From IMG/VR virus record IMGVR_UViG_2548876701_000026: DNA of 17,205 nucleotides; one strand, given 5' to 3'. The stretch's first letter is position 1. Each line of letters starts with the position of its first letter. This document shows, piece after piece, positions 1 to 15,440 of this stretch. The translations under genes and the position numbers were made by a program. The stretch is from a virus. Taxonomy: Duplodnaviria > Heunggongvirae > Uroviricota > Caudoviricetes. The notes under the pieces are model-generated. The model ran no database searches. It worked only from the letters and a program-made list of their open reading frames with translations, and had not been told where the DNA came from.

Positions 1-201
1 TTAAGACTCCAGTTTCGCAAAGGCTCGACGTAACTGATTATTCAAATCACGGTCGACCAGCATCGCTATCAGCTCGTCTCGACTGTAGTAAGGGCGATCA
101 GGGTTATCGACTCCAAGTCTCAGCAGGGACAGGAGGTGACGGGTAGGCAGACCACGGTAGCGGAGAGTTGCACGACCAATAGGTGTGCGCGGGTCAATCA
201 T
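1..201 (-). CDS. hypothetical small protein (66 aa), translationally coupled to the upstream Rha-like gene
   Basis: Complete ORF: stop codon at 1-3, start at 201, overlapping the stop of the 203-931 gene. No recognisable motif. Confidence 0.45.
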   Translation of the reverse strand: MIDPRTPIGRATLRYRGLPTRHLLSLLRLGVDNPDRPYYSRDELIAMLVDRDLNNQLRRAFAKLES

Positions 202-202
202 C

Positions 203-931
203 TTAGAGTCCCTCCAGCTTGCCGGATTGGGCTTGCTTCAGGAGATGCTCTTGCTTCTGCTGGTCGGTGCCAGTGAAGGCAATAAGGATGCCTCGCAGTT
301 TATCGACTATCGCAGGCTTACCGAAGACCTCCAATCCCTTAGCGTTGAAGCGAAAGTTATAACCACCTGCTGAGAACTTCTGGTCTGACGGCTTAATGAT
401 ACGGAAGCAGTCGGAATACTTTGGATTTACAGACCACTCGTTACTGATTGGGTTCTTACGAAAGAGACCACGATGCTGAAGAAGTGCGGTCATTAGCTTC
501 TGAGCGGGTAGACCATAGGTTTTGCAGTAGTCGCCCCAAGTCACGCCTCGGCGGTTAGCGGACTGAATGGCTGCTCGCTTCTTCTGGTCTTCCAGTTGAA
601 GGACTCGACGCTCTAACGTCTGAATATGGTCGTAACACTTGGCGCGGAGGTGAACGGAATAGCCAGCGACCAGAATGAAAGTATGCTTACGGTCGAGACG
701 GTACAGAGGCTGCTGTTTCCCCTGCGCGTTTAGATAGACATCTTCAGTCACCCCGATATGACTGCTCAGTTTTGAGCACTGCTCAGTTTTGAGCGCGTTA
801 AGCTCCTCAGCCATATTGCGAATATCACGTAGGACATTTCGGTGCTCCTTGCCTGTCAGCTCAGCAATTTCAACTGAGGTCATGGAGACAAGCTGGTCGA
901 GGTTAATGACGCTGATTTCTTGTTGAGACAT
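203..931 (-). CDS. Rha-family phage regulatory protein with antirepressor (KilAC-like) C-terminal region
   Basis: N-terminal segment SVEIAELTGKEHRNVLRDIRNM matches the Rha-family signature as I remember it. AAGGAG-like RBS upstream of the ATG at 931. 242 aa. Confidence 0.7.
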   Translation of the reverse strand: MSQQEISVINLDQLVSMTSVEIAELTGKEHRNVLRDIRNMAEELNALKTEQCSKLSSHIGVTEDVYLNAQGKQQPLYRLDRKHTFILVAGYSVHLRAKCYDHIQTLERRVLQLEDQKKRAAIQSANRRGVTWGDYCKTYGLPAQKLMTALLQHRGLFRKNPISNEWSVNPKYSDCFRIIKPSDQKFSAGGYNFRFNAKGLEVFGKPAIVDKLRGILIAFTGTDQQKQEHLLKQAQSGKLEGL

Positions 932-1233
932 TTACGTGTACTCCTTTTGTTTGCACCCTGAAGTCGCACCCCCACTGACCTACTCAAGCCCCCACGTAAA
1001 GGGAGACCAGCAGGCAACAGGACGCAAACAGAATGACTTGAGGTAATTGGGGTTAGTGGTCTGCGATGACCATAGAGATGAAGGTTCGACAGCATGTCCG
1101 AGCGTGTGTGGTGATAGACTTAAGTCACGAGACCAAAGAACACAAAGGCTGACCAGAGGCTGGTGGCTAGCAAGCTAGCGTGGACCACGGTTTCTCGCTT
1201 GCCGTCTCTCAGGAGGTCAGAGGCGAGATATGG

Positions 1234-1255
1234 TCCCTATAGTGATAGTTTAGTC
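1234..1255 (-). promoter_or_regulatory. T7-class single-subunit RNA polymerase promoter-like element (copy 1), predicted start near 1237 reading leftward into the Rha gene
   Basis: Minus strand reads GACTAAACTATCACTATAGGGA; the core TCACTATAGGGA equals the -8..+4 core of the T7 consensus TAATACGACTCACTATAGGGAGA. Exact 21-nt direct repeat of 1793-1813. Confidence 0.5.
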
Positions 1256-1587
1256 AAACAGGAATGAACTTCGGAGAACCTGACGCGAAAGTGTTCAGTA
1301 CTTCCAGTTAGACCCGAAGTATGGAGAACCACATCATAGCGACCGTAGTATACTTCGGGCTGACAGGACTGGAGGCTGGACTTAAAGTTCTTCTTATTGG
1401 AATTGTGATAACACAATCCATAACAAGATGAACTCATGGTCTCCTCAAGCCTGCTGGTCAGGCTCAAAGCTCCAACCTCAGACACCACTGGTCTAACCTT
1501 TTTGAGTTTCCGCCTGTCCACAAATGGATGGCAGACCTCAGCAATGATGTCTTGGTTCTTCACAATCTCGCACACCGATGGTCGCAT
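1237..1587 (-). CDS. hypothetical protein (116 aa by ORF track; alternative start at 1437 with GAGGAG RBS gives 66 aa)
   Basis: ORF lies between promoter-like copies 2 and 1. Weak RBS at 1587, better RBS before the internal ATG at 1437. No motif recognised; could be spurious. Confidence 0.2.
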   Translation of the reverse strand: MRPSVCEIVKNQDIIAEVCHPFVDRRKLKKVRPVVSEVGALSLTSRLEETMSSSCYGLCYHNSNKKNFKSSLQSCQPEVYYGRYDVVLHTSGLTGSTEHFRVRFSEVHSCLTKLSL

Positions 1588-1790
1588 AGACGGATACTTC
1601 CGCTGCGGTCTGATGTTCTCCGCCTGTCAAAGGAGAGAGATTGCTACGTTAAAGGGAATGGTCTCAGGCCAAGGTGATTTAACACTAGGCTTATTGCGGA
1701 TGGTTTCCAATCGGTCCGCTACCGGAAGCCTGAGACTTAATGAATGTGTGGGTCGGTGGCTGTATTAAGCCCGGGGGGACTTAGGGTCTC

Positions 1791-1813
1791 TCCCCTATAG
1801 TGATAGTTTAGTC
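1791..1813 (-). promoter_or_regulatory. T7-class promoter-like element (copy 2), predicted start near 1795
   Basis: Minus strand reads GACTAAACTATCACTATAGGGGAGAGACC. Identical 21-mer to copy 1, and GGGGAGAGACC resembles the T7 initiating region GGGAGACC. Confidence 0.5.
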
Positions 1814-1820
1814 CCCCCCC
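1813..1820. repeat. C8/G8 homopolymer tract between promoter-like copies 3 and 2
   Basis: cccccccc at 1813-1820, read directly. Confidence 0.9.
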
Positions 1821-1839
1821 TTCCCCTATAGTGTGGGTT

Positions 1840-1840
<1 letters not shown>
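1821..1840 (-). promoter_or_regulatory. T7/SP6/K11-class promoter-like element (copy 3, divergent upstream half), immediately after the stop of the 1840-2499 gene
   Basis: Minus strand reads AAACCCACACTATAGGGGAA; CACACTATAGGG core. Confidence 0.35.
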
Positions 1841-4099
<2,259 letters not shown>

Positions 4100-4340
4100 G
4101 TACTGAGACCTTAGGTCTGCTCACTACTTCAACAAAGTTAGTCACAGTGTTGGTTACAGTGAGTAAAACTATCGGAAGGCTTTAAGCCGTATCCCTTAGG
4201 ATTCAGTAAGTTAGTAGACTTTAAGAATGGTCATGGAGCGGGCGAAGGGAATCGAGGAAACCCATAATAACCTGCTGTAAAATAAAGATTTTGTGATCAA
4301 TCATAGGTAACTGATTACGTGATAATAGAGGATCATTATC

Positions 4341-5668: not shown

Positions 5669-7510
5669 TTAACTTGGTGCTTGCCCAGACAGAGCCGCCA
5701 ACGTGAAACTACGTTCAAAATCTTGTTGGATACTTCCCACTTTGTAATCGAGGTATGATCCAAGCTGACTACCATCAGGAGCGATATTCACATCAACCTT
5801 ACTTTCTGGCACGTTTACGACAATGCTTGGCGCATACGTCATAGATGGGGTAGTGTTCAGATCACGGCTAACGTTCTCTTTCAGGGATTGCACGTTATCG
5901 GACGGGCTTGAATAGTTCTGAATTGCAGTTCCGCCAGTCGTTGGCTTGTCTTCCGTGCCAGGGATAGGCGATAAGCCTAAAGCACTACGACCCCAATCAA
6001 CCATGCCGCCTACAAACGAATCCTTATAATACATACCGGACGAATCAAGGTTTTCATGTTTGTTCTCTGGATTTATATTCTGGTATGCAGCAGTAAGCCA
6101 CGATACAGCACCAGCAAAGGCGCTCATCATTTCAGCCGTTGAGCTTCCAAGTTCTTTAAACAGAGGATTGAGATCTTTCAACATTTGCGCCCACTCTTCA
6201 CCAGCCTGAGCGTCGAACTCTTCACCGAATCCCGTCATGATAGCTTTCTTACTACCTTCCCAGGCCATATTCATATTAGCCTGTACAGCTTGCAGACGTT
6301 CAGCAGCGTCAAGATCCGCTTGCGTATAGGTGGCATTGGCTTTTTGCATCTTAACGATGGTTTTATTTAGCTCTTCACCGTTACGACTGAAAGCACCACG
6401 GAAATATTGTAAATCATTTCCAAGGTCTTCAAGGATGTGACCCTGCTCCTGATCAGAGAGTCCACGGCGTTCTCCTTCTTTCACTACAGCGCCCAGGAAA
6501 CCTAATGGATCAGTCTGGAAACCTTTAATCTGTTCAGGACTCCAACCATATTTATTAAGGATGTTATCGACGGCACCATTACCGCCAGCCCAGCGACCTT
6601 TCTTAGCGTCCCATTTGGTATTCCCTACGGATTCACCTAAACGCTCTTGAACGTCTTTAAGGTTGTCTTGACGTTGGTCTACGGAACTATCGACACCGTG
6701 TTCTAAGCCGTACTGATTAAGTGCTAACAGGGCGTTAGTGTTTACGTTGACAGCCTTTGCCTTGCGGTTAGTGTCTGTGATCTTGCTTGCCTGATCGGTT
6801 ACGGTATTGAATATCGCAGCACCGCCGAGAGTGGCAGCAGTGAGAGCGGCACCGCCCACCATTGCACCTACACCACCGCCTATATGACCGCCTTTAAGCT
6901 GTTTAGCCATATGTGGATATTTACCGCCATCAGCCGCCACCTGGCGAGCTTTTACAGCAGCCGCACGGCGTTCTAACGTGATACGATCACGGATCAGGTG
7001 ATTCATCTTAGCCTGACTAATAGCGCCTTTCTCATACGCTGCCGTTTGTGCTTTGATGTATTGCAACGTTTTGTAGTATTGGGCGGAGTCCATACCGTCG
7101 CCCATACGCCCTTTCTTAATCCCTTCAAGCTGTCTGAAAGCTTGCTGGCGCTTAATCTCTGCTTTCTCTGCTATTGTCGCTTTAGCGCGGATCTGTTTAT
7201 CGGCAGCTATAGCGGCTTTAGCCTTCGCTTTAGCTTCTGCCTTTGCCACCTTATCAGCGTTCTTCTTATCGGTTTGAGCTTGCTTGTCTGACGCTTTGGC
7301 ATCAGTTTTAGCCTGTGCAGCTTTACGAGCCTTTACCAGATCATGAGCCTCGTCTATAGCTCGTTTAGCCTTCTTCCCTTTCAATGTTGGATTGGTTAGG
7401 TTTTCCATTTCTTTCTGAAATTTCTTCCCTGCGTCCCTTGCTTTCTGTAATGATGCAAAATCAACTTTAAATACAACCTTGTTTGTTAAGGTTGAGATGT
7501 TTAAATCCAT
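5669..7510 (-). CDS. large coiled-coil / glycine-zipper protein, tape-measure-like virion protein (613 aa)
   Basis: Lys/Ala/Glu-rich heptad-like N-terminal third (KVAKAEAKAKAKAAIAADKQIRAKA), hydrophobic Gly-zipper GGHIGGGVGAMVGGAALTAATLGGAAIF, long low-complexity C-terminus. AAGGA RBS upstream. Product assignment by composition only. Confidence 0.45.
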   Translation of the reverse strand: MDLNISTLTNKVVFKVDFASLQKARDAGKKFQKEMENLTNPTLKGKKAKRAIDEAHDLVKARKAAQAKTDAKASDKQAQTDKKNADKVAKAEAKAKAKAAIAADKQIRAKATIAEKAEIKRQQAFRQLEGIKKGRMGDGMDSAQYYKTLQYIKAQTAAYEKGAISQAKMNHLIRDRITLERRAAAVKARQVAADGGKYPHMAKQLKGGHIGGGVGAMVGGAALTAATLGGAAIFNTVTDQASKITDTNRKAKAVNVNTNALLALNQYGLEHGVDSSVDQRQDNLKDVQERLGESVGNTKWDAKKGRWAGGNGAVDNILNKYGWSPEQIKGFQTDPLGFLGAVVKEGERRGLSDQEQGHILEDLGNDLQYFRGAFSRNGEELNKTIVKMQKANATYTQADLDAAERLQAVQANMNMAWEGSKKAIMTGFGEEFDAQAGEEWAQMLKDLNPLFKELGSSTAEMMSAFAGAVSWLTAAYQNINPENKHENLDSSGMYYKDSFVGGMVDWGRSALGLSPIPGTEDKPTTGGTAIQNYSSPSDNVQSLKENVSRDLNTTPSMTYAPSIVVNVPESKVDVNIAPDGSQLGSYLDYKVGSIQQDFERSFTLAALSGQAPS

Positions 7511-7526
7511 AATATTTTCCTTTACC

Positions 7527-7562
7527 TTTTATTTGTTTTGTTTTGTTTTGTTTTGTTTTGTT
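7527..7562. repeat. pentanucleotide simple-sequence repeat (TTTTG)n on plus = (CAAAA)n on minus, about 6 units
   Basis: tttg followed by five perfect ttttg units at 7536-7560, read directly. Encodes the C-terminal KQNKTKQNK of the HTH gene and sits 18 nt upstream of the 613-aa start. Confidence 0.9.
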
Positions 7563-7735
7563 ACGTAGTATTGCACTGCTTCCATAGCTGAGCAGCCAGT
7601 AGTGAAGATTCTTTGACGTACAGCAGTATTAGAGATCCCTAAAAACTTACACACTTGAGAGATATTCAGAATATCTTCCGGTAAGGTGGAAACAGCTTTC
7701 AGGATCTCAACTGGATTGTTGTTTTGTTCGCTCAT
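7529..7735 (-). CDS. small helix-turn-helix DNA-binding protein (AlpA/excisionase-like), 68 aa from the ATG at 7735 (ORF track extends to 7786)
   Basis: ILNISQVCKFLGISNTAVRQRI is a classic HTH. The N-terminal 17 codons of the 7786 start overlap the upstream terminator hairpin, so the internal Met (MSEQ) is preferred. C-terminus is encoded by the (CAAAA)n repeat. Confidence 0.5.
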   Translation of the reverse strand: MSEQNNNPVEILKAVSTLPEDILNISQVCKFLGISNTAVRQRIFTTGCSAMEAVQYYVTKQNKTKQNK

Positions 7736-7778
7736 GATTTTTCTCTCACAATATTTTAATAGACGGTATAAACGAAAA

Positions 7779-7839
7779 AAGGGCAAAAGAGATTGTTTAC
7801 TGTATTTGCGCTACAGGTTTAATAATCCCTTTTGCCCTT
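7779..7839 (-). terminator. intrinsic terminator after the capsid-like gene (long-loop hairpin plus U6 on the minus transcript)
   Basis: aagggcaaaag (7779-7789) and cttttgccctt (7829-7839) are perfect inverted repeats; aaaaaa at 7773-7778 gives UUUUUU 3' of the stem on the minus strand. The 39-nt loop contains an inner ctgta/tacag hairpin. Confidence 0.4.
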
Positions 7840-7888
7840 ATTGCCTGTTTTATTTCCAGTCGCACAGGAAACGACTATTAACGCTTTA

Positions 7889-8917
7889 TTACGCTACTGT
7901 GATCTGTACAGTGAAGCCTACGCCGTGGTTTACAACCATCTGGCTATTCTCAGTAACTACGTTTACAGCGTCGTTACGTGCTGGGCTAAACGCATAGCTG
8001 TAATATTCAGCCGCGCCAGAATTCAGCAGGTCGAACGTTGAAGAAGGAGCGCCGAAAATGTTCTGATAGACGTTAGAGCCTTTAGCGAACTTCGGAACAG
8101 CAACCGCATCAGAAGTCATATGAGCCAGCAGCAGCGGATCAGTAACTTTAACGATATCGATGTTAGTCCCAGGAATAGTGAAGGTAGTCACACCTGGCAG
8201 CAGGGAGCGCACGCTATAAACGATGTTTGCGTCATCGGTAGGGCTTGCATACTGGAACGCGTTAACCATGCCAGCACTGTAACGGATAGCGTTGAAAGCA
8301 GCAGGTTTACAGAATACAACGATACGTTCTACAGCAGCCGCCTGGCTTTGTGCTTTAGTAATAACGTCTGTATGCATCTGATCGAATTGCTGGAACACCA
8401 TAGAAGGCGTGGTGCTTGATGCGTCGATGGTTGCAGTCATCGGAACAACACTAAACAGATCGCCCCACTGGATCAGCACATCATCAGTTTTAGGGGTGTA
8501 AGTGCGACCAGAGAACAGGGAAGCAGCCAGCACGCTTTCTTTAGTACGCTGGAAAGCAATGTGGTGCTTAGCAACATATTCCGCGTAGATATCTGTCAGA
8601 GTTTCTTCAACGGTAGCGCCTGGTTTACGTTTGCCTTGCACGTCTTGCGGCTTAATCATATCTTCACGCAGGAAGTAGGGGATCTCTACTAAAAATTCTT
8701 TACCCTGTTCACGTTTAGTCACGTTATGTTCAGAAGAGAAACGAGAGGTTTCTTTGTTGAACAGAGATTCGTTAGTTTCCACCAGTTGGCTAACAGCCAC
8801 TTTATGAGAACTCACACCTACCGGATCAGTAAAGTCGAGAGAAGTTAACAGGAAGTTGCGAGAGTCGTGCAGACTAAACAGCGGAGCCAGATCGACGGAT
8901 TCATTACCAATAATCAT
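7889..8917 (-). CDS. putative major capsid protein, lambda gpE-like (342 aa)
   Basis: Size and synteny (about 120-aa decoration-like gene immediately upstream, terminator downstream). Loose colinear resemblance to lambda gpE as I recall it (segments IAFQRTKESVLAASLFSGRTYT and ERIVVFCKPAAFNAIRYS). AAAGGAA RBS. Not verified by search. Confidence 0.45.
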   Translation of the reverse strand: MIIGNESVDLAPLFSLHDSRNFLLTSLDFTDPVGVSSHKVAVSQLVETNESLFNKETSRFSSEHNVTKREQGKEFLVEIPYFLREDMIKPQDVQGKRKPGATVEETLTDIYAEYVAKHHIAFQRTKESVLAASLFSGRTYTPKTDDVLIQWGDLFSVVPMTATIDASSTTPSMVFQQFDQMHTDVITKAQSQAAAVERIVVFCKPAAFNAIRYSAGMVNAFQYASPTDDANIVYSVRSLLPGVTTFTIPGTNIDIVKVTDPLLLAHMTSDAVAVPKFAKGSNVYQNIFGAPSSTFDLLNSGAAEYYSYAFSPARNDAVNVVTENSQMVVNHGVGFTVQITVA

Positions 8918-8935
8918 TATTTTTATTCCTTTATA

Positions 8936-9307
8936 TTAAGATGTGAATACAGTGTTAAAACCAGCCATCTGGAAACCTTTTGCAGCCAGGGCAGCAATAG
9001 CAGCTTCTTTCACAGCGCCTTCAACATTCAGAGCATCGGACTTGATGCAAACCAGTCCGGCATTGCTACGCAGCACGTTAACGGTTTTAGCGTCGCCAGC
9101 GGATACCGCATCAGACACAACTACAAGAACATCGCCGCCGCTTACATATTCAGCGCCGTCACTGGTAATCAGATCGCCGCATTCAACATCAACCGCCAGA
9201 TCAACGGTAAAAGATTGCACACAACCGAACTCATCAGTTGCATATGAAACGATATCGGTAAATGATTTGCGAACTGGAAACAGATCGCTCATATTAATAA
9301 TAGCCAT
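8936..9307 (-). CDS. putative head decoration protein (gpD-like), 123 aa
   Basis: Position immediately upstream of the capsid-like gene; small Ala/Val/Gly/Asp-rich protein with a C-terminal AAIAALAAKG segment. AAGGAAA RBS. Confidence 0.35.
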   Translation of the reverse strand: MAIINMSDLFPVRKSFTDIVSYATDEFGCVQSFTVDLAVDVECGDLITSDGAEYVSGGDVLVVVSDAVSAGDAKTVNVLRSNAGLVCIKSDALNVEGAVKEAAIAALAAKGFQMAGFNTVFTS

Positions 9308-9309
9308 AA

Positions 9310-9525
9310 TTAATAGTTTCCTTTTTTGGATTGTTTGATTTGTTCTGCTTTTGCTTTAATCAGATCCTGCATAGTAGGTTTCTGTTCATCAGCAGACTTA
9401 AAAAGCTTATCACAATGTTTTTTCAATTCTGTGGGAGTGATCCCCAGCATATAAGCCGTAGCATTGAATGTTTCATCAGTGATAACCAATTCTTCGTTAC
9501 CATTCTTTAGAATGAGATTTTGCAT
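9310..9525 (-). CDS. hypothetical small protein (71 aa), first gene of the capsid-like cluster
   Basis: ORF with stop abutting the start of the decoration-like gene. No motif recognised. Confidence 0.4.
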   Translation of the reverse strand: MQNLILKNGNEELVITDETFNATAYMLGITPTELKKHCDKLFKSADEQKPTMQDLIKAKAEQIKQSKKGNY

Positions 9526-9578
9526 TATTGCTTTACCTTTATTCCTAACAGTCTTGTTTAGTGCTGATAAAAATAAAA

Positions 9579-9599
9579 CCGGAAGGGGAAAGCTTCCGG
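9579..9599 (-). terminator. intrinsic terminator (minus-strand orientation)
   Basis: ccggaag / cttccgg form a 7-bp GC-rich stem with a 7-nt loop; on the minus strand it is followed by UUUUAUUUUUAU (plus 9565-9577). Confidence 0.55.
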
Positions 9600-10115
9600 C
9601 TTTATGAATACAACATTTGAAGGATGTTATAGAGTGTTACTAAATCGCAGTTTATATGAACTTAAAGAGGAGGACATATAAGAATAAGATTGCTTATTGT
9701 TATATACCCTTGAGGGGTGAATAACAGGCTTACAGGGAGTAGGCGCTTAGGAGGTCGCCCCCTTTGGAGAGGAATCTATAAACCTGTTATTCGTGCGACG
9801 GCTAATCGCTGTCTTTCACAATGTGGATGCATCGATCAGACTTTCAGGAATCACCTATTAACTTTCAAACCTTTTGGATTCTCATTTTAATAGGAGGCGG
9901 TGCCGAGATGATTTCGGGGATCATCCACGCTTTCGCGTTCTAAGATTGGCACCTTAATAAACACCAACAAACAAAAACATATTCAGCTTTAAGCTTAGTA
10001 GAAAACTGTTGTCAAGAAACAGATATACACCGTTATTTGTTTATACGGGGTTTATAGACACTGTAAACAGTGTTTTTAGAAAGTGTTTCATGCTTCGCAG
10101 TTGGTTAAAAAGATG

Positions 10116-10137
10116 AGGGGCCAAATCCGTAGCCCCT
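10116..10137 (-). terminator. candidate intrinsic terminator downstream of the small-gene operon
   Basis: aggggc / gcccct form a 6-bp stem with a 10-nt loop; the minus strand then reads CAUCUUUUUAACC. Confidence 0.35.
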
Positions 10138-10403
10138 GCATTCTTAAGACACAATTTTGATAAAGCAATAAGGAAAATAAAATGAAACTATTAACGAGGG
10201 AAACAATTTCTAAAAAATCACTGTAAAGGGAAAGCGGGATAGGTTAGATAGGGCGCGCCCCCTTGAGGTCTACCCCGCTTTCGTGTAGGATTAGAATCGG
10301 GAGAAGGATTAACGCCAGCTAACACATATTTTCGATTCAAAACCCCACATTTATTATTATAACATTTCTGTTAGTAAAAGTCAATAGGTAAATGCAATTA
10401 TTT

Positions 10404-12158: not shown

Positions 12159-12824
12159 TTAAAATGGTATTGAGTCATAGATTTCACTTTCTTTTCTCAG
12201 GGCTATCATCAGTGCATTAAAAGCATCATCTTCAAGAATTATCCTCTTCGAGGTCAGTGCACGTTTTATAAAATTTTCTGTTTCTTCTTGCATAGGCTTT
12301 TGGCTGTCTATGGAAATAAGCCATGTAAAAAGATCAGATTGTTCCGTGATTTCTGCCTGTGTTTCCTGCTCAATAGAGTGTGTCGCTTCTAACGGTTCCT
12401 GTGTTTCAGGTGCAGGCTGTTCTACGTTTACAGAGGTTTTTACGTCTTCCGGTGGTGTGATGTGTGCATCTGTAAAGGGTAATGCTTTATAGAGTGATGT
12501 TTGCCCGTCCCGTGCCTCTACAGAAAGAACACCCATATCAATAAACATATTTATAATATTACGCACCTGACGATCACTAACCATTCCAATATTAGCTAAT
12601 GTTTTTTGATTGGCGTAACATTCTTGCCCTTGTTCATTGAACCCAGCTACGTAACTGTAGATTTCAACGGCTGGAAGTGTCGCGGTGTATTCCTTACCTG
12701 ACGGTGAGAACCACTTTTTAAACATCTTCAGCCATTGTTCAACTACTACATATGTTTGTTTACTATCTTTCTTATTGAGGCATTGCGCTTTTGCTTCGGC
12801 AATTGTTTTGGTGTTTTGGTTCAT
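12159..12824 (-). CDS. winged-helix DNA-binding protein resembling phage/plasmid replication initiator or replisome-organizer N-terminal domains (221 aa)
   Basis: Segment YSYVAGFNEQGQECYANQKTLANIGMVSDRQVRNIINMFIDMGVL fits the pattern (Y..N...G.CY.SQ.TLA...G.S...V.R.I..L...G.I) seen in Rep/replisome-organizer HTH domains; acidic linker follows. AAAGGAGG RBS. Confidence 0.5.
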   Translation of the reverse strand: MNQNTKTIAEAKAQCLNKKDSKQTYVVVEQWLKMFKKWFSPSGKEYTATLPAVEIYSYVAGFNEQGQECYANQKTLANIGMVSDRQVRNIINMFIDMGVLSVEARDGQTSLYKALPFTDAHITPPEDVKTSVNVEQPAPETQEPLEATHSIEQETQAEITEQSDLFTWLISIDSQKPMQEETENFIKRALTSKRIILEDDAFNALMIALRKESEIYDSIPF

Positions 12825-13154: not shown

Positions 13155-13769
13155 AAAAAACTCCTTATTTAGATAAAAGAAAAACACACCTTGCAGCCTG
13201 ACGGCTCAAAGTGCAGTGTTCTGTGATTTGATTATTTAGATGGAGAGAGATGTTTCTCCCCTCCCTACTTACAATACTACATAACGGCGGCTTTGTCAAC
13301 CCTCTCTTATAAAAAACTTGATCATTTTCAATTTCTTATAATTTTTCTTAGCTTTTTGTGCTGCCTACTCTGGTACAATTCTTCCCTGTTGCCTAAAACG
13401 CTCTCAATCGCACTCTGACGGGGGTTTTGATAAAAACAATACATTCCCTTATGTAGAGGTTGTTTATCTCGTCAGAGGCTTATTTAAGGGGCTTATTTTT
13501 GATTTATCAGATGATGGAAAGATGGTGGATAGATAAACTCTGATTTCAGACATCTTATAAAATACCTGTAAAGCTCCTCAGAAGCTCTATAACGAGCTAA
13601 TCTATTACCGCTAAGTGTTTCCCTACCTTATATACGTTTAGCTCGCCTACGGCTTGATTTAAGCGGTAGAAACTTATTTAACCTTCAACTACTAAAACCA
13701 TTCTTTCTTTTTTGTTTGTTGTTGGTTGTTGTCTGTGTCTATGTGCTAACATCGCTAACGCGTAGCACA

Positions 13770-14035
13770 CAAGGTTATTGCACTCGTCAGAGTATTGCAC
13801 AATAGATTTTCTCTTAAATAGATTGATGATCGTTAGATTGGCGTAAGCCTCATCAATGGAACTATTGAAGCGCACAGCGCATAGACACTAACAACCATTC
13901 GCTTACGCTCAGGTTATTGCACAAGTAAATTTCAATCGTTAGATGGTAGTTAGTTAATTATCGTTCTGCGCACAGCGCAAGACTATTAGCCATACGCAAG
14001 CCGTAGGCTATTTGCACATAGTAGATTACATATTC
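13770..14035. repeat. degenerate tandem repeats of about 100 bp carrying recurring TTGCACA, CGTTAGAT and CGCACAGCGCA motifs
   Basis: cgcacagcgca at 13871-13881 and 13969-13979; cgttagat at 13831 and 13937; aggttattgcac at 13772 and 13911. Confidence 0.5.
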
Positions 14036-14918
14036 GTTGTGAGCGGAAAGCGAACATAGATCAGCTAACTACTAACAAAAAACAAAAAACAAAAACTATC
14101 TGTTATGACAAGCATCAGTCTAACTTGTGCAAGGTTCTGGCGAATGCCAATAGATTAAGGGATAGTCGAAGACTCCCTAACGGGTATCCCTATAATTATT
14201 CTTTAAAAGATAAAAGAATTTATAAAAGATAGTTTAATTGTAGTTTAATTATAGTATTGTAGGAACTCATTTCCTGGGTAGGTAGGAAACCCGCACTATA
14301 CGGTAAAAAGTGCTTGCATGTCAACTTATATTATGTTAATTGCGGCTTTAGATCGTCTAAGTGATTGTTAAAAGTAACTTTTAAAGTTAACAATTGATCA
14401 ATCAAACTTAAAAATTCCCGGCTTTAGAAAAGCATAAGTATTGTGCACACTGGTAAGTGTCTTGCACAGAAAAAGGTGTAAAAAATGTCTAAAGCCCTTT
14501 AGATAAAAATGATACCTTTATACATGCGCTAATAGCGCGCATAACAATAACCTACTAACAACTAACTAAAAAGTAAGAAGATGTTGTTATGATTAGTGTA
14601 TCGCTCAACGCTCACATCTATCTCTGATCTATAAATTGGTAACTGTCTAACAACAACAAACAACTATTACATGCAAAACAGCCTTACGGCTGCATAGAGA
14701 TGATTGGCTAACCTTCGGTTGCTACGCATAGCCATATCTATGAGAAGATAAAAGAGATTTAAAGGTTAGTTTGTTGTTGATCTAACTAACATTCGCTATA
14801 CGCTCATACAATCTACATTACACATTAACTATCAAACTACAATCTAACGATATATAGAATCTATATCCACTCATTATCATTCGTGCAATGATCACATTGA
14901 TAGTTCGCTATACGCTCA
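13898..14918 (+). repeat. four same-orientation iteron-like direct repeats TCGCT-N2/3-ACGCTCA; candidate origin or recombinase-binding region
   Basis: Copies at 13898-13911, 14601-14614, 14792-14806 and 14904-14918, inside a 2.25-kb AT-rich region with no credible ORF. Confidence 0.5.
14074..14094. repeat. (AACAAAA)3 heptanucleotide tandem repeat
   Basis: Read directly. Confidence 0.85.
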
Positions 14919-15440
14919 CCTCTATTATGTGCAATGGCTTTTCAGGCAACGCGTTAGCGTATTCTTGCGAATGCCTGATCTCCAAAGCCGGAATTAAACA
15001 GCAAGAATATCTCGTGTAAATCATAGAATATTCATAGTTTATCCCTATGTAATTCCATACTAAAAATTCAATGAAAAGTAGCTTAAAAGAGCAATGTTAG
15101 CTTTCTTCACTTTTACATTATCATCAGCAAAGCCTTATGTAATGCGGCATATAGCGCATCACTGCAAAATTGTTGCTCAATAAACGTTCTATCATTTATT
15201 GAACAAGTTTCCTTTAATGCAACAAAAAATTATTTTTTCAAAATAAACACACTATTTAATAGCTTGCTAATTTTACCAAAATGTAACTACATGATTCTCA
15301 TGCAAGACGTGTAGTGATAAAGCAGGCTAAATCACCACACTAAAAACCTTCGAATTTCGTAGTGAAAAAAGTCCTTTACACACCTAATCAACACGATCAA
15401 TAATCACTACACACAAATCAACACAGAAGGAATAAAGAAA

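Follow-up and report, generated by a model that had tools for sequence, protein, structure and literature searches.

A conserved, structured non-coding RNA ahead of the capsid operon of a satellite-like Escherichia coli island, and its possible role as a terminator-gated leader

What is encoded by a long stretch without genes that separates the replication genes from the capsid genes of a virus-like island? The question is raised by an 880-bp spacer at positions 9526-10403 of a 17,205-nucleotide (nt) window (the whole stretch analysed here, IMG/VR record IMGVR_UViG_2548876701_000026), in which an earlier note, made from the letters alone, had seen terminators, palindromes and recurring motifs and had proposed a small minus-strand RNA or a regulatory hub. 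The spacer is a gene for a long structured non-coding RNA, which has no Rfam match and is a new RNA family, and we lean towards reading it as a minus-strand unit in which this RNA is a leader gating the late (capsid and tape-measure) operon by transcription termination. That the stretch is free of genes, as previously claimed, is borne out: it holds only open reading frames (ORFs) of 25-57 codons, most with TTG or GTG starts, is unannotated in all 40 records listed out of the 64 matching E. coli genomes, and carries indels among its variants that are often not multiples of three, i.e., frame-breaking.

Relatives of the spacer within E. coli come in three lineages, namely the window type, with ten variants at 88-97% identity, the H22 island, diverged and with a spacer of 860 bp at the same position, and a third, much commoner lineage with a spacer of ~990 bp (L030-L035). 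The transcription signals of the window, in the direction of transcription, are as follows.

10384-10356, minus strand: sigma-70 promoter (-35 TTGACT, 17-bp spacer, extended -10 TGT-TATAAT, 11/12 match)
10105-10145 (core 10137-10116), minus strand: T1, predicted internal intrinsic terminator with 8 pairs, its U-run beginning 4 nt past the core stem
9564-9605 (hairpin 9605-9573), minus strand: T2, predicted strong intrinsic terminator, a 13-bp stem and then UUUUAUUUUUAUC
9310-9525, minus strand: 71-aa ORF, first of the capsid/tail operon, starting ~40 nt past the T2 U-tract

The promoter, which the earlier note did not contain, lies ahead of both terminators, 20 bp past the stop codon of the preceding gene, with an inferred transcription start at ~10348-10350. 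It has both hexamers of a sigma-70 promoter at a spacing of 16-18 bp and is conserved, including in other genera: across the ten window-type variants the -35 does not vary and the -10 remains close to consensus, and an equivalent promoter occupies the same place in every related island scanned. No other sigma-70-type site was detected by the promoter scan between this promoter and the ORF starting at 9525.

Both minus-strand terminators proposed earlier were recovered by our scan (9605-9573 and 10137-10116), which returned four terminator-like sites in the region vs. 1.0 expected. Each combines a hairpin with a U-tract, as predicted from sequence, and their stems are invariant among window-type variants while the loops vary; the 13-pair stem of T2, directly followed by the U-tract UUUUAUUUUU, is 100% identical in one of the more divergent variants (L003), and a T1-equivalent terminator can be read in both the H22 and L030 sequences. 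Because the promoter stands upstream of both terminators, the expected products are nested RNAs starting at ~10349, one of ~240 nt (to T1) and one of ~780 nt (to T2). The earlier suggestion is supported in that the RNA is on the minus strand and that a regulatory element separates the replication genes from the capsid genes; the independent small RNA that it placed within 9560-10200, between the two terminators, is not supported as stated, the promoter being upstream of both. As no promoter was found between the leader promoter and the 71-aa ORF, the capsid/tail operon would be reachable only by read-through.

Two features of the promoter itself deserve mention. The -10 hexamer (10356-10361) is the consensus TATAAT in the window and TAGAAT in three variants (L001, L011 and L003), and holds the only difference between the window and 2013C-4187 (L001, the closest complete genome) in the stretch compared. 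The promoter spacer also contains a dyad, TAAC-N6-GTTA (10362-10378), overlapping the extended -10 and common to the window type and to islands of Citrobacter, Cronobacter and Enterobacter (L018, L021, L023), with partial versions in H22 and L030; this dyad is a candidate operator for a repressor.

Does the transcript of this unit fold into a defined structure? The 785-nt minus strand has a minimum free energy (MFE) of -228.8 kcal/mol with a z-score of -8.7 relative to shuffled sequences, vs. -3.1 for the plus strand, and the asymmetry is sharpest in a central domain (9710-9900; z = -4.15 on the minus strand vs. +0.22 on the plus strand). The shorter, T1-terminated RNA also folds better than shuffled sequences (z = -3.4). 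From 5' to 3', the RNA is organized as follows.

10284-10349, minus strand: P1, the 5' domain, in which the 5' end of the RNA is sequestered in a stem (MFE folds)
10230-10282, minus strand: P2 hairpin, 13-bp stem (10230-10242/10270-10282) with internal loops CCUCAAGGG and UCUAAC
10200-10224, minus strand: 5' arm of a long-range helix enclosing T1 (17 nt, 94% complementary; MFE)
10067-10089, minus strand: 3' arm of the same helix, overlapping the palindrome at 10058-10073, which is an alternative local hairpin
9899-9953, minus strand: three-way junction GGUGCC...GGCACC holding an ACGC-GAAA-GCGU hairpin with a GNRA loop (MFE), in the window lineage only
9710-9900, minus strand: central domain, 190 nt, helices Pa to Pf (covariance model R1)
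9896-9852, minus strand: Pa, central-domain helix
9841-9811, minus strand: Pb/Pc, loop CAUCCA
9809-9795, minus strand: Pd, loop UAGCC
9792-9719, minus strand: Pe, 17 bp
9760-9741, minus strand: Pf, loop CCUCCUAAG
9609-9698, minus strand: 3' region with hairpins 9698-9652 and 9631-9609 and a CCUCCUC stretch (CCUCCU at 9673-9668) unpaired in the MFE fold

The motifs first noticed in this spacer turn out to be helices or loops of this one RNA, parts of a larger conserved fold. The nine-pair hairpin is real and longer than claimed, GAAAGCGGG (10230-10238) pairing with CCCGCTTTC (10274-10282) within a full stem of 13 bp, which does enclose the palindrome GGGCGCGCCC (10251-10260); likewise, the recurring motif is present as CCCTTGAGG at 9707 and 10260 (two copies vs. 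0.04 expected) and as CGCCCCCTT at 9756 and 10256, and the 7-2-7 palindrome ACACTGTAAACAGTGT at 10058-10073.

Among the 5' elements, the inner hairpin of P1 (UUAGC-UGGC-GUUAA, followed by the CU-rich AAUCCUUCUCC) is backed by RNAalifold, and the P1 block GTGTTAGCTGGCGTTAATCCTTCTCC is common to the window and H22, with a diverged version in the L030 lineage. P2 is missing in H22; in the window type its C-to-U changes face a G and preserve the pairing solely on the minus strand, and the L030 lineage has in its place a 12-bp stem that is unrelated in sequence and bears the same internal-loop motifs (CCUCAAGG and CUCUAAC). A cross-family RNAalifold analysis of P1-P2 recovered only the inner P1 hairpin, the P2 stems having been misaligned by MAFFT. 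The helix enclosing T1 (22 bp) has a duplex z-score of -2.7 in the window type, with 2 of 200 shuffles as good; we do not retain it as a conserved feature, the H22 and L030 equivalents drawn by eye being no better than shuffles. The three-way junction is 98% identical in L003, a variant only 88% identical overall.

Conservation among the E. coli lineages follows this architecture. In the window type, the -35, the terminator stems and the region ~9700-9950 are almost unchanged, the variable parts lying just past the start site and at 9956-10072, and T2, the central domain, P2 and T1 stand at 92-100% identity against a divergent background of 80-86%. Only 148 nt (9715-9862) and a 34-nt block (within 10300-10333) are alignable with H22. 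Independent MFE folds of the three lineages nonetheless give the same order of elements, i.e., P1, P2 (not in H22), T1, a variable middle, the central domain, a long hairpin, CCUCCUC and T2, with equivalent covarying hairpins preceding CCUCCUC in both H22 and L030. The central domain in each lineage comprises Pa, Pb/Pc (loop CAUCCA), Pd (loop UAGCC), a Pe of 16-17 bp and Pf (loop YCCUAAG).

The covariation analysis that the earlier note had called for shows the stems of the central domain to be kept with compensatory changes. RNAalifold on the window type plus H22 gave 46 pairs, 10 of them compensatory, and a covariance model built from these sequences found the L030 lineage, on which it had not been trained, at 86-102 bits (E ~1e-23 to 1e-28), vs. 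only 13-19 bits on the opposite strand. Across the resulting 19-sequence alignment, 98.8% of the cells pair (35-45% with slid partners) and 23 of the 46 pairs are compensatory (0-6 with slid partners), values reached by none of 500 shuffles. G-U pairs fill about 64 of the 840 cells; read on the plus strand, these would become A-C mismatches. Compensatory change and preference for one strand together mark the domain as a structured RNA, with invariant nucleotides in loops and unpaired segments amid the covarying stems, including GAUUCC, present twice. The same observations run counter to the earlier idea that the palindromes are protein-binding sites on DNA: they behave as RNA helices, with G-U pairs that can form on the minus strand alone and with compensatory changes in diverged relatives. 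Within the central domain, L035 compared with L030 and L031 appears as a mosaic, with the Pc hairpin from one lineage and Pe/Pf from another, so that recombination seems to exchange whole helices among variants.

None of this matches a known RNA family. Searches of Rfam 15 with the window and six related loci gave no family at the gathering threshold and only noise in E-value mode, and a search for tRNA and tmRNA found none.

How widely is this arrangement distributed? Homologues of the island's capsid protein (53-80% identical) led to islands in Klebsiella aerogenes, K. pneumoniae, Enterobacter, Citrobacter, Cronobacter, Dryocola and further Escherichia, with the same gene order and a 330-720-bp spacer at the same position. 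A scan of genome contigs with the capsid protein returned a single locus, and just one of the 80 loci returned by a metagenome scan with a loose pattern was a true one. The spacers scanned have a promoter right after the upstream gene (TTGACA/TTGACT or a weaker -35, with a good -10), and every lineage scanned has a strong terminator 40-110 nt ahead of the first capsid-operon ORF; in every relative examined (short- and long-type Escherichia islands and other genera) the leader is 190-900 nt long and has no annotated ORF. Long-type islands all have a homologue of the 71-aa protein after the RNA. The shortest Escherichia spacer, ~330 bp, is reduced to a promoter, ~190 nt and one terminator, without the central domain; the basic gate therefore does not require that domain.

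The other-genus spacers could not be aligned with the window by BLAST, and the covariance model of the central domain detected nothing in other genera or in short-type Escherichia islands; the leaders of other genera have compensatory pairs of their own (36 of 138). No long motif is universal, as no 8-mer or 9-mer is shared across genera, and no 8-mer reaches six of the nine lineage groups. A short motif does recur: of 13 spacers drawn from all genera, 11 contain a single copy of CUCCU(U)AA, confined to the sense strand, which lies 126-227 nt upstream of the spacer end and sits in a hairpin loop in most cases. Another sense-strand motif, GUCAGAYUKAA, is shared across genera (H22, L030, L018, L020, L021 and L023 spacers) and sits in the T2 hairpin loop of H22 and L030; in Citrobacter it appears, by eye, to pair with a nearby GUUCAGGCUGG, which resembles GUUAGCUGG of the E. 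coli P1, and this pairing may be a long-range or ancestral interaction.

A terminator gate follows from this anatomy, because a strong promoter is followed by one or two terminators and by no other promoter. In such a gate, the sigma-70 promoter would fire, possibly subject to repression through the spacer dyad, and most transcripts would end at T1 (~240 nt) or T2 (~780 nt), leaving the structural genes silent. Their expression would then need read-through of both terminators, presumably upon island induction or helper-phage infection, by way of antitermination or an RNA switch, with the central domain between T1 and T2 as the part of the RNA that might receive the signal. The terminated RNAs may also work in trans.

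By analogy, the RNA may work like known late-operon termination gates, with a conserved central domain added. The closest parallel is PR' of Stx phages, which is always active, is terminated immediately downstream in lysogeny and yields the regulatory small RNA StxS (PMC7547250). As in the lambdoid PR'-tR' units (lambda 6S RNA, StxS; Q antiterminator), a strong promoter and an intrinsic terminator stand ahead of structural genes, in all related islands examined, the unit lies between replication/regulatory and morphogenesis genes, and the terminated short RNA is a by-product that can be regulatory. The island differs from these units in having no Q gene and no conserved sigma-dependent pause element, in a leader at least four times longer with two terminators and a conserved 190-nt covarying domain that Q systems do not need, and in lacking DNA similarity to any phage in the collection. 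Neither does it resemble an N/nut system: the island has no Pfam or PHROGs match to a Q- or N-like protein, the sole place where an exact boxA (CGCUCUUA) was read is T1 of the L030 lineage, the window having none, and reading the sequences revealed no conserved boxB.

Other known leaders share single traits with this one. In the satellite P4, a constitutive promoter (PLE) drives a structured immunity leader giving rise to the CI RNA, and premature termination governs the genes further downstream. The satellite-like island likewise has a leader RNA that may act by premature termination, and differs from P4 CI and P1 c4 RNA in having no Rfam C4 match, in being ~10 times larger and in standing before a structural rather than a replication operon. 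Pairing of the P4 CI/P1 c4 type was rejected, the leader pairing with the translation start no better than shuffles in eight of nine lineages, as was a 17-nt complementarity between 10177-10161 and 9535-9519, which is weakened in six variants without compensating change. With the HK022 put RNAs, which antiterminate in cis without protein, the likeness is one of arrangement only (adjacent hairpins after the promoter and upstream of the terminators, P1 and P2 being 1 nt apart); unlike put, P2 is missing in H22 and the best-conserved domain lies past T1, not before it. GOLLD, ROOL, OLE and raiA are comparable in size (0.8-1 kb), multi-domain fold and association with phage-like elements, and differ in that none matches the window or the six related loci in Rfam and that the island RNA is positioned as an operon leader with terminators. 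Type III toxin-antitoxin systems (ToxIN) show the same order of promoter, non-coding RNA, terminator and protein gene, and are ruled out by the absence of tandem repeats; the 71-aa protein has no PADLOC match.

Several observations weigh against the gated leader. The transcript ends and terminator strengths are predictions only, and the covariation comes from about four independent lineages in an alignment fitted to the covariance model. No antiterminator was recognized, the neighbouring small proteins being without informative Pfam, PHROGs or PADLOC matches, and no boxA/boxB-like element was seen on reading the window. Nor does the alignment, on reading, show a conserved -10-like pause element near the start of the transcript, of the kind Q-type systems would need: the first 25-40 transcribed nt are among the least conserved parts and keep no -10-like hexamer. 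As the capsid protein is only ~25% identical to phage capsid proteins, a lambda-type Q cannot be assumed. Finally, the central domain is absent from short-type Escherichia islands and undetected in other genera.

Which other explanations could account for the same features? The RNAs might instead be stand-alone products, a ~240-nt small RNA and/or a ~780-nt RNA, acting in trans on helper or host transcripts or proteins, e.g., through CCUCCU loops, with their position before the capsid operon incidental. We regard this as a real, if minor, possibility, given the strong promoter and discrete terminators, the 5' end sequestered in a stem as in stable RNAs, and the StxS precedent of a terminated leader acting in trans (PMC7547250). 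It could also account for the three CCUCCU copies on the RNA strand within 880 nt (chance expectation ~0.14, scaled from 5.4 for both strands of the whole window) and for the conservation of CUCCU(U)AA as a single, sense-strand, usually looped motif. It leaves unexplained, however, why a capsid-operon promoter is missing in every lineage, and no target is conserved: the best partners of the motif among island genes differ by lineage, and the leader pairs with the translation start of the gene that follows it no better than shuffled sequences do, K. pneumoniae excepted. The CUCCU(U)AA motif and the CCUCCU loops presumably resemble the 3' end of 16S rRNA (CCUCCUUAA), i.e., they would be anti-Shine-Dalgarno-like. 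It is tempting to speculate, and we do so tentatively since we hold it to be rather unlikely, that a new class of large (0.8-1 kb) multi-domain RNAs, found only in a previously undescribed family of integrative islands with capsid and tape-measure genes, by an aptamer-like core or by these 16S-3'-end-like loops, senses a helper cue and switches off the terminators, coupling satellite late genes to the helper, possibly without an antiterminator protein.

Another reading, in which the central domain is an aptamer-like sensor of a small molecule or of a phage or island protein whose binding turns T2 off, as a riboswitch-like report of helper infection, seems to us quite unlikely. Covarying stems around invariant unpaired GAUUCC (twice), CAUCCA, UAGCC, CCUAAG and ACCC are the usual signature of a binding pocket or tertiary contacts, and the domain does lie upstream of a strong terminator; yet T2 is 110-150 nt further downstream with no obvious overlap between domain and antiterminator, the domain is absent from short-type islands that retain the gate, no Rfam riboswitch matches, and there is no candidate ligand. 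Least probable of all, to the point that we give it very little credence, is a role at the DNA level, as a cos packaging site, a replication origin or an operator cluster with the palindromes as protein-binding sites. The palindromes, the dyad in the promoter spacer and a 10/12 match to lambda cosN (AGGGGGCGACCT, 9752-9763, the sole one in the window) would fit such a role, but a match of this kind is expected by chance in 35% of shuffles, and this one is lost in the close variants L004 and L006 and in H22 and L030, the hairpin staying in place; a cos site was rejected on these grounds, the 12-mer in Pf being at chance level and unconserved. Helices maintained by G-U pairs possible on one strand only and a strongly strand-asymmetric fold z-score also speak against a DNA element, and iteron-like repeats are found elsewhere (14600-14918).

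The proposed gated leader is embedded in an island whose main genes are listed here, from upstream to downstream.

12159-12824, minus strand: O-like replication initiator, together with small ORFs, on the upstream side of the spacer
9526-10403: the 880-bp spacer, between replication and capsid genes
7889-8917, minus strand: major capsid protein (Phage_cap_E)
within 5669-9525, capsid operon: 613-aa tape-measure-like protein (phrog_16051, E 8e-65)

Nearly every gene between 13187 and 5669 is on the minus strand, and the operon after the spacer encodes, in order, proteins of 71 and 123 aa, the major capsid protein, an 85-aa protein and the tape-measure-like protein, beyond which lies a convergent tyrosine integrase; many related islands additionally encode a Dit-like distal-tail protein. 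The island looks like a phage satellite, because no terminase, portal or tail-tube gene was found in it. The phage capsid proteins of the collection reach only ~25% identity to its own, the best matches being large myoviruses, and on this basis a lambda-like helper was rejected. The window is an E. coli chromosomal island (99.9% identity to O26:H11 and related strains), inserted in the complete genomes examined between yqeG and tRNA-Gly/actS/xdhA. Its spacer type is present in 64 of 5426 complete E. coli genomes, and parts of the H22 spacer match 332 of them (~6%), O26:H11 and O104:H4 pathogens included. The window and L030 spacers have no DNA similarity to the phage collection, and the window spacer has none to plasmids; the L030-type 5' leader has a copy on a 166-kb plasmid (NZ_CP126938.1, APEC E19019; hit H79), so the island family is not restricted to the chromosome. 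Literature searches found no description of the island or its RNA.

Two other regions of the window stand apart from the leader. Positions 13188-15440 form a second large (~2.2 kb), AT-rich and almost ORF-free stretch, with long inverted repeats rich in TTG/CAA and with iteron-like repeats (at 14600, 14792 and 14904 for TTCGCTATACGCTCA and its relatives; two copies of GCGCACAGCGCA). Related islands have a ~1.9-kb gap with few called genes at the equivalent position, and the stretch may be an origin, packaging or early control region. At the other end, positions 1-4100 look like a separate element inserted in tandem, comprising Rha, PD-T7-4 and a 535-aa integrase and bordered on the outside by IS66; the DUF4145 protein at 1840-2499, adjoining this second integrase, is a PADLOC match (E 1e-102) to the anti-phage defence family PD-T7-4.

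A phage satellite has to switch on its structural genes in step with its helper phage, and the known means are protein activators (Ogr/Delta for P4) or derepression. The structural operon of this island appears to be reached solely by way of a long, conserved and structured RNA that must be read through. If the terminator-gated leader is correct, this would be an RNA-based timing device for satellites and a new structured RNA family, parts of which, through a relative's spacer, occur in hundreds of complete E. coli genomes; it would also offer a handle for finding the helper and the trigger of an island family with its own capsid, tape-measure and distal-tail genes.

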